NCBI RefSeq assembly: GCF_030384885.1
Contig: NZ_CP128613.1
Reading direction: 5' to 3' (one strand)
Origin: Escherichia coli
Lineage (GTDB): Bacteria > Pseudomonadota > Gammaproteobacteria > Enterobacterales > Enterobacteriaceae
Length of the DNA: 64,000 nt
Made by a program: the position numbers and the translations under genes. The notes beneath the pieces are model-generated. The model did not search any database, was not told where the DNA came from, and saw only the letters and a program-made list of their open reading frames with translations. This document shows positions 14,230 to 22,328 of the stretch, one piece after another; position 1 is the first letter of the stretch, and each line of letters starts with the position of its first letter.

Positions 14230-14377
14230 CTGTTCCCTCTCCACGAGAAATTTCCCCATTAGACCATATTTATTTTATGTCAGGCGTGCTGTTTTCGCGG
14301 TATGTATCCAGGCAGGAGCTCAATCGCAAACCGGACGAACGTTAGTTCATCCGGCTGTGGGGATTAAGGAAGCAGGT

Positions 14378-15361
14378 TTATTTTACCGTGCCTAAAATTT
14401 CGATTTTCGCCACTCTGGCTTTGACTTTACGTGACCAGATAGAGGTAAGGATTGGCACCAGAATCGAAGTCACAATGACCGCCGTCGCGACCAGCGAAGT
14501 TGCTGCCGGAGCCATCGGTTTCAACGCAGGCACCATTTCTGCAATCAGCACAGGTGTCGCTACCGCCGCCCCTGCGGAACTGGAAGCGGCAATTCCGGCA
14601 GTGCCATCGCCACCGCCAATCAATTTATCGGCGATAATCAACGGAATACCGGTCACGATAATTACTGCCACACCCAACAGGATCCCCAGCAAACCTGTCT
14701 GGGCAATTACAGTCAAATCAATGGTATTGCCCAGCGCGAAGGCAAAGAATGGAATCAGCGTCTGCACCGCTTTGCTGAAAAATTCTCGTAATTCAGGGTC
14801 AAGGTTCCCAAGGGCAAAGCCCACCAGGAACGGTAACACTGCGCCGACGAAAACATGCGGTTCAAACGAGGCAATCCCGGCAGTGCCCAGGATAATCATC
14901 GTCATGAGCGGCCCGGACTCCAATGACATCAACACAAATGCCCCAGCTTCTTCTTTCGTACCGTACTGCTGCATGATGGAAGCGTAAAGTCCGCCGTTGG
15001 TCATATCCATCGCCGCCACCAGCGCCAGCGTTGAAAGTCCGGCAAAGAATCCAACTTCAACACCATGTTCCGGAATAATGCGCGAGGCAATTGCCGCAAC
15101 CACCCACGCGACGGCAATTTTTGTTACCACCAGCGTACCGGATTTACGCAATACCGTTCCCGTCGCGCTTAATTTTATTGACGCCCCCATGCAAAAAAAC
15201 CACACCGCCAGAATGGGCACCGTACCGGTAATCATCCCGTTGGTGAATGATCCAAAATATTTCCCCGCCCCCGGCGAGAAGGTGTGGCACAGTGCGCCAA
15301 GGAATAGCGGGACGAGCATCATCCCCCCCGGGATTTTTTCAATCGAGCGTTTTATCTGCAT
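14378..15361 (-). CDS. kdgT: 2-keto-3-deoxygluconate permease
   Basis: ORF 14378-15370; start at [11 protein letters not shown] (327 aa); polytopic membrane protein. Confidence 0.9.
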
Positions 15362-15480
15362 TTCCATCACCTGTCGGCATATTTTTAAGGGCTGATGCGT
15401 AATTCCTCAACGGAGCATCAGTGTTGATGAAAACGAAGATAGACATTCATTTAATCAATAAAAGTGATCAAAACCACATC

Positions 15481-15503
15481 AATTGAAACACTGTTTTATT
15501 TTT
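15481..15503. promoter_or_regulatory. KdgR-type operator candidate upstream of kdgT
   Basis: Imperfect palindrome tGAAACActGTTTTA about 120 bp upstream of the kdgT start. Confidence 0.45.
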
Positions 15504-15537
15504 ATCGGATCATTGTTTTTATTTTGAAATTGATCAC

Positions 15538-15566
15538 AAAAAAACCACCGCCGTTGGCGATGGTTC
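15538..15566 (-). terminator. rho-independent terminator after sodA
   Basis: Hairpin accaccgccgttggcgatggt followed by a T-run on the minus strand. Confidence 0.6.
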
Positions 15567-15620
15567 ATTTTTTAAGCTGATATGCGGCGTAAACGCCTCA
15601 TTGCAGCAGGCGGCAAATGA

Positions 15621-16241
15621 TTATTTTTTCGCCGCGAAACGTGCCGCTGCTTCGTCCCAGTTCACCACGTTCCAGAACTCTTTGATGTAGTCAGGACGGC
15701 GGTTCTGGAATTTCAGGTAGTAAGCATGTTCCCACACATCCAGGCCCAGAATCGGGAAGCCGGAAGCGCCAGAAATAGCTTCACCCATCAGCGGGGAGTC
15801 CTGGTTAGCAGTAGAAACCACCGCCAGTTTATCGCCTTTCAGCACCAGCCATGCCCAGCCGGAACCAAAGCGGGAAGCTGCCGCTTTCTCAAATTCTGCT
15901 TTGAAGTTATCAACGGAGCCGAAGTCACGTTCGATAGCCGCTTTCAGGTCACCCTGTAAGGTGGTGCCTTTTTTCAAACCTTTCCAGAACAGGCTGTGGT
16001 TAGCGTGACCGCCAGCGTTGTTGCGCAGTACGGTTTTCTTGTCTGCTGGCAGCTGGTCCAGTTTGGTGATCAGCTCTTCAACCGGCAGGTTGGCAAATTC
16101 TGGCAGGCTTTCCAGCGCCGCGTTGGCGTTGTTGACGTAGGTCTGATGGTGTTTGGTGTGGTGGATTTCCATGGTCTGCTTATCGAAGTGCGGTTCCAGG
16201 GCATCGTAAGCATACGGCAGGGATGGCAGGGTATAGCTCAT
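15621..16241 (-). CDS. sodA: Mn superoxide dismutase
   Basis: ORF 15621-16247; start at [18 protein letters not shown] (206 aa). Confidence 0.95.
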
Positions 16242-16304
16242 ATTCATCTCCAGTATTGTCGGGCGGCCGATTGTTAATGCCGCGTAAGCAGTTGGTTCAT
16301 TATA

Positions 16305-16340: not shown

Positions 16341-16525
16341 GTACTTTTCGTAAGGGTATGGTTTTGCAGGAAAATGCCCGAGATGTGAAGCAAATCACCC
16401 ACTTAATGCCGTGATTGCCAGTAAATCGACAACGGCGGCAACAGGCGAAAGGTTAATCGACAGCACGATTTTTACACTCATCTCGTCGGAGATGTGACGC
16501 GACGAAAAATGATGAGGATAAGAAG

Positions 16526-19315: not shown

Positions 19316-22328
<3,013 letters not shown>

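Follow-up and report, generated by a model that had tools for sequence, protein, structure and literature searches.

Does the near-palindrome upstream of kdgT, the gene for the 2-keto-3-deoxygluconate (KDG):H+ symporter, serve as an operator for the repressor KdgR, or does it belong primarily to another regulator, or to none? The original prediction had described the site as a near-palindrome of the KdgR-box type in the AT-rich promoter region of kdgT. It had named two checks: a scan with a KdgR position weight matrix (PWM), with a low score as the outcome that would count against it, and a comparison with the upstream regions of kdgK and eda. We took a KdgR operator to be recognizable by four properties: an imperfect palindrome of 17–21 bp matching the published consensus, a position within the control region that precedes a gene for the catabolism or transport of KDG, hexuronates or pectin, a phylogenetic footprint upstream of orthologous genes, and a cognate regulator gene in the same genome.

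Results

The sodA–kdgT spacer and its palindrome

The window, by which we mean the whole 64-kb stretch of DNA that was analysed, is Escherichia coli chromosome with the annotated gene order cpxP, cpxR, cpxA, yiiM, kdgT, sodA, rhaT, rhaR, rhaS. Over positions 14300–16300, its identity to the 2013C-4282 chromosome of E. coli (NZ_CP027579.1) is 100%, compared with 95–99% for the majority of the other complete genomes of the species. The regulated gene, kdgT, occupies 14378–15361 on the minus strand (RefSeq annotation), and its product matches Pfam PF03812 (KdgT, 2-keto-3-deoxygluconate permease) with 382 bits and an E-value of 2e-114. The 259-bp spacer 15362–15620 lies downstream of sodA (15621–16241, minus strand) and upstream of kdgT, and it contains the intrinsic terminator of sodA (15542–15566, minus strand; an 11-bp stem followed by a T-run), which bounds the kdgT control region on its upstream side. 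The A+T content amounts to 62% in the spacer and 76% in its core (15436–15540), compared with 50% for the whole window, which bears out the AT-rich location described originally.

The near-palindrome tGAAACActGTTTTA is found at 15484–15498 on the plus strand; it consists of two half-sites, TGAAACA and TAAAACA, which share 6 of 7 positions, and a central C at 15491. It is part of the 21-nt sequence AATTGAAACACTGTTTTATTT (15481–15501), hereafter box 1, the candidate primary operator, which has the same centre (15491); this centre precedes the kdgT ATG by 130 nt. For KdgR sites, a 21-nt consensus has been published, AAATGAAACAnTGTTTCATTT, as quoted, after Rodionov 2000/2004, in PMC5559549. Against the consensus in that quoted form, box 1 has two mismatches over 20 specified positions (18/20 agree); it is the sole match in the 64 kb at ≤3 mismatches, and dinucleotide-preserving shuffles of the window contained matches in 0 of 100 cases. 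Similarly, box 1 has one mismatch to AATRAAAYRNYRTTTYAKT, which we take to be the 19-nt IUPAC form of the KdgR site, where 0.01 matches would be expected per window. The site is thus an imperfect palindrome of the KdgR-box type, within the 17–21 bp typical of KdgR operators and unique in the window, and it is situated in the control region before a KDG transport gene.

One position of the box is polymorphic. At position 10 (window 15490) the strain analysed has A and K-12 has G (CAGTG versus CAGCG in the kdgT sense), and a search of complete E. coli genomes with the exact 41-mer gave 2090 for the A of the window and 2058 for the G of K-12. Both alleles fit the KdgR consensus, and they differ little in PWM score (28.7 bits for A versus 28.1 bits for G), so that the polymorphism looks neutral.

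Matrix scan and comparison with other K-12 sites

For the scan we used a symmetrised log-odds PWM derived from KdgR-type sites of E. coli K-12, seven in all and none of them at kdgT; the sites were located in the regions upstream of other genes of the KDG pathway. They comprise TAATGGAACACTGTTTTAATA at kdgK, the two kduI boxes AAATGAAACATTGTTTTATTT and AAACGAAACAGTGTTTCACTA, AAATGAAACGTTGTTTTAATT at tabA (yjgK), TGAAACCACATTTCA at yeeO, the weaker TATTGGACCGGTGTTTCAAAA at eda, which lies within the end of edd, and the site at ygjV. Box 1 scored 28.7 bits with the seven-site matrix and 30.6 bits with a matrix from the four strong sites only, a score equal to or above that of every training site except kduI-1. 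The runner-up in the window reached about 13–16 bits (13.4–15.9) and the top scores across 20 shuffled windows were 14.6–17.9, which places box 1 ∼13–15 bits above both the remainder of the window and the shuffles. Because its score matches those of the best training sites, the operator reading survives the low-score outcome that had been set against it.

In the comparison with kdgK and eda, kdgK carries TAATGGAACACTGTTTTAATA and eda the weaker TATTGGACCGGTGTTTCAAAA. The sites at kdgK, eda, yeeO and ygjV are weaker than the kdgT box; in K-12 these four were missed by the 21-mer consensus at ≤3 mismatches and were identified via a 15-nt core or by eye. The supplements of PMC6127512 contain no list of KdgR sites. 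The second-best PWM match in the window, AAGTAAAACAACCTTGTATTA (37514–37534, in the yiiF–yiiE spacer), was rejected as probably due to chance, its 13–16 bits being at shuffle level. As a separate observation, the KdgR/PlaR-type box TGAAACCACATTTCA of K-12 falls within the yeeO coding sequence, at its 5′ end, as annotated in NC_000913.3, which suggests that the annotated yeeO start codon may be too far upstream.

Conservation of the box upstream of kdgT

A scan for KdgT proteins, using one genome per species, yielded 80 loci across Enterobacterales. Of these 80, 74 had a box scoring at least 18 bits within the 400 nt that precede kdgT (median, 25.3 bits), with its centre mostly 96–150 nt before the ATG; as a control, the best PWM scores within coding regions had a median of −1.2 and a maximum of 6.5. 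The box-less loci were those of a Limnobaculum, Pantoea sp. IMH, Budvicia and a Selenomonadales metagenome-assembled genome, together with two loci that fell barely under the cut-off.

When the 75 boxes (from the 74 loci and the window) were compared, the AAA of the left half-site and the TTT of the right half-site were invariant, and the G before the right TTT was present in 74 of 75. The position closing the left half-site was C in 63 boxes and T in 12, and at its mirror position the counts were 50 for C and 25 for T. More variation was seen at the A/T positions that flank the core. The kdgT box therefore leaves a phylogenetic footprint upstream of the orthologues of the gene.

KdgR and PlaR as candidate regulators of kdgT

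An intact kdgR gene of 792 bp is found at 646511–647302 of NZ_CP027579.1, the genome identical to the window around kdgT, so that the box and its cognate regulator gene occur together; moreover, K-12 kdgR DNA was matched in 5424 of 5426 complete E. coli genomes. Published expression data agree with a role of KdgR at this gene. Northern blots showed that deletion of kdgR in K-12 raises the mRNA levels of kdgT, kdgK, eda and kduD, which were named as known KdgR targets, and the same study states that these genes carry a KdgR box (PMC6958661). Likewise, kdgT, kdgK, kduD and kduI were overexpressed in a strain with a 39-gene deletion that includes kdgR (PMC6892915), and kdgT belongs to the kdgR regulon according to classical genetics (so described in PMC4784465 and in PMC6892915). 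In the literature searched, neither a footprint nor a gel shift of KdgR itself was found for the kdgT operator of E. coli; the one in vitro binding to this fragment that was found is that of PlaR. A search for E. coli KdgR ChIP-exo, DAP-seq or SELEX data returned nothing relevant. Overall, the matrix score, the conservation of the box, the intact kdgR and the derepression of kdgT in kdgR mutants support the original assignment, and we put the probability that the palindrome at 15481–15501 is a functional KdgR operator of kdgT at about 0.9, the binding of KdgR itself being predicted.

The main competitor for the site is PlaR (YiaJ), an IclR-family paralogue of KdgR. If box 1 were primarily a PlaR operator, the control of kdgT by KdgR would be indirect or secondary. 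The kdgT spacer was selected by PlaR in genomic SELEX, as one of ten high-affinity targets, and a kdgT probe was shifted by PlaR in gels (PMC6958661). The primers of that probe map to 15352–15370 and 15707–15726 of the window, and the 375-bp probe hence includes box 1; the PlaR contact is localized to the probe as a whole rather than to the box, the sequence of which is compatible with the PlaR palindrome. The PlaR-box consensus, with TGAAAC and GTT(T)CA as half-sites 3 nt apart, is of the same type as the kdgT box (PMC6958661). However, the gel shifts required micromolar PlaR (1–5 μM), and kdgT, named among the genes with increased mRNA in the kdgR mutant, is missing from the derepressed genes that the text gives for the plaR mutant (PMC6958661). 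The classical genetics cited above also argues against PlaR, as may the conservation of kdgT boxes in many genera. We consider a primary role of PlaR at this box quite improbable, and PlaR is not likely to be the main regulator of kdgT. Because kdgT is omitted from the genes derepressed in the plaR mutant and named for the kdgR mutant, the binding of PlaR at kdgT is probably cross-recognition rather than its main function, and recognition of the box by both KdgR and PlaR is likely.

A second KdgR-like box, CRP-like sites and the predicted kdgT promoter

To place the KdgR box within the control region, we aligned the spacers of 15 Enterobacteriaceae and compared, anchored on box 1, the 75 sequences from the 74 loci and the window. 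In the kdgT sense, box 1 is preceded at a distance of exactly 22 bp by a weaker KdgR-like box, AATAAAAACAATGATCCGATA in the minus-strand reading (15503–15523; box 2), with a conserved left half (RAAAC) and a degenerate right one (ATCC). Taken alone, box 2 is at shuffle level, being the third-best PWM match in the window with 12.7–13.7 bits; the evidence for it comes from invariant alignment columns and from phasing. Averaged over the 74 loci, the PWM score by offset from box 1 was +5.6 at −22 and −8.1 at −21, and at most −12 at the other offsets 12 to 70 bp to either side. The position of box 2 upstream of kdgT is kept across many genera of Enterobacterales.

The two boxes are flanked by sites resembling those of CRP. 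The proximal one, TGTGGTTTTGATCACT (15463–15478, minus strand; centre 15470.5), abuts box 1 and has two mismatches to TGTGA-N6-TCACA; its GATCACTTTT is invariant in the 15 Enterobacteriaceae, and among the 75 sequences a GATCAC(T)TTT block begins 20–22 nt after the centre of box 1. The distal one, TGTGATCAATTTCAAA (15523–15538, minus strand; centre 15530.5), has one mismatch to the CRP core. It is centred 39.5 bp upstream of the centre of box 1 and is shared by 16 of the 75 box-carrying sequences, all of them from Enterobacteriaceae. Raw matches to the CRP 16-mer are not enriched across the window (17 found versus 26 expected); the CRP assignment is based on conservation and on published SELEX, in which kdgT was among the new CRP targets (PMC3105977).

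Three GATC (Dam) sites fall within ∼70 bp in this region, one in each CRP-like site (15466–15469 and 15532–15535) and one in box 2 (15509–15512). Elsewhere in the window, good matches to the CRP core occur in the sodA–rhaT and rhaS–rhaB spacers (16384–16399, 19444–19459 and 19479–19494), where CRP sites of the rhamnose regulon are to be expected. Separately, kdgT has been listed among the genes with a GATC site that changes methylation in long-term stationary phase (PMC5155068); such a change might reflect protein occupancy in the control region.

A simple promoter scan of 15300–15700 found no σ70 promoter at 9/12 matches, and we therefore inferred the kdgT promoter from conservation. The predicted −10 hexamer is TATCTT (15436–15441, minus strand), in which the A at 15440 and the T at 15436 are invariant in the 15-spacer alignment; in 66 of 75 loci a TAnnnT follows GATCAC at exactly 22 nt. 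Transcription would then start, provisionally, near 15429, and relative to this start the centre of box 1 would lie at about −62, that of box 2 at about −84, and those of the proximal and distal CRP-like sites at about −41.5 and −101.5, respectively. The proximal centre is located 29.5 nt upstream of the −10 hexamer, measured to its first base, which is the −41.5 geometry of class II and suggests that the kdgT promoter is a class II CRP-dependent promoter.

This placement bears on the weakest reading, that box 1 is a chance near-palindrome without a regulatory role or that the kdgT promoter merely has a UP-element-like A/T tract there: DNA such as the 76% A+T spacer core often contains short palindromes rich in A/T, and contacts of the RNA polymerase α-CTD or a UP element are expected at about −62, but no shuffle attains the match of the kdgT box, the 75 sequences hardly vary at the G and C of GAAAC...GTTT(C/T) while their flanks drift, and the motif also precedes other genes of the KDG pathway (kdgK, kduI and tabA), so that we give this reading hardly any credence.

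From the predicted start, the leader of kdgT would extend over ∼68 nt, followed by a Shine-Dalgarno sequence and the ATG. It contains a 7-bp inverted repeat, CTGATGC...GCATCAG (15392–15421, minus strand), and Citrobacter spacers have a differing but likewise self-complementary sequence at the same place. As a distinctive structure, the hairpin that would pair 15392–15398 with 15415–15421 was rejected, its fold z-score being −1.4. An Rfam scan of 15250–15700 returned sub-threshold hits only (16.7–23.2 bits versus gathering scores of 50–60).

Discussion

The presence of a KdgR box before kdgT, a member of a long-known regulon, is already known and ordinary. It confirms that the standard control of KDG uptake by KdgR is kept in this strain, which has little import beyond correct annotation, and the kdgT box provides a well-conserved training example for motif models of KdgR and PlaR. 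The only angle that is possibly new is the geometry, in which a phased box 2 and box 1 are sandwiched between CRP-like sites.

With box 1 read as the KdgR operator, regulation at kdgT may be pictured as follows. KdgR, a repressor of the IclR family, would bind the palindrome at 15481–15501 and keep the gene for the KDG transporter off, and in the presence of KDG it would leave the DNA. In the kdgT sense, the predicted control region runs from the sodA terminator through the distal CRP-like site, box 2, box 1, the proximal CRP-like site, the −10 hexamer TATCTT and the leader to the ATG. At box 1, KdgR would abut the CRP site (22 bp) and take up the stretch upstream of CRP with which the α-CTD of RNA polymerase makes contact, and it would therefore repress by anti-activation, that is, by blocking CRP-dependent activation and not by covering the −35 and −10 regions. 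A point against the picture as a whole is that about −62 would be an uncommon place for a repressor acting by simple occlusion, so that anti-activation is an inferred step, to which we would give a little less than an even chance.

Tetramer formation occurs in the IclR family. If a second KdgR dimer were bound at box 2, at a distance of two helical turns, it might add cooperativity. Taken to its full extent, the arrangement might constitute a conserved composite switch, in which two KdgR boxes phased 22 bp apart, a strong one and a degenerate half-site, lie between two CRP sites and a KdgR dimer of dimers displaces CRP or the α-CTD while the core promoter stays uncovered; we offer this composite form as a tentative proposal, with somewhat more speaking against it than for it. 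The order of box 2, box 1, the CRP-like site and the −10 hexamer, kept at fixed spacing across Enterobacterales, offers a testable model of an IclR-type repressor opposing activation by CRP. Antagonism between CRP and KdgR was reportedly described by Nasser et al. in 1997 for the pectinolysis promoters of Erwinia.

Three known systems invite comparison. In class II CRP promoters with an adjacent specific repressor, the position of the CRP site and the abutting repressor box have the same arrangement as the CRP-like site and box 1 at kdgT, a likeness that at kdgT is one of sequence. The K-12 box of PlaR (YiaJ) is a palindrome near-identical to the kdgT box, but the PlaR system differs in having the yiaK operon as its main target and in the mutants for which derepressed genes are named in the text, kdgT being named for the kdgR mutant and absent for the plaR mutant (PMC6958661). 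The closest relatives are the KdgR boxes of the pectinolysis regulon of Dickeya and Erwinia and those of E. coli kdgK, kduID, eda and tabA (Rodionov 2000, 2004, as cited in PMC6958661 and PMC5559549), since the kdgT box is the same 21-nt imperfect palindrome. Like the known targets of KdgR operators, kdgT is a gene of the KDG pathway in a genome that has kdgR, and its box scores as high as the best K-12 sites. There is no substantial difference between the kdgT box and known KdgR operators, the only one being the A at position 10 where K-12 has G.
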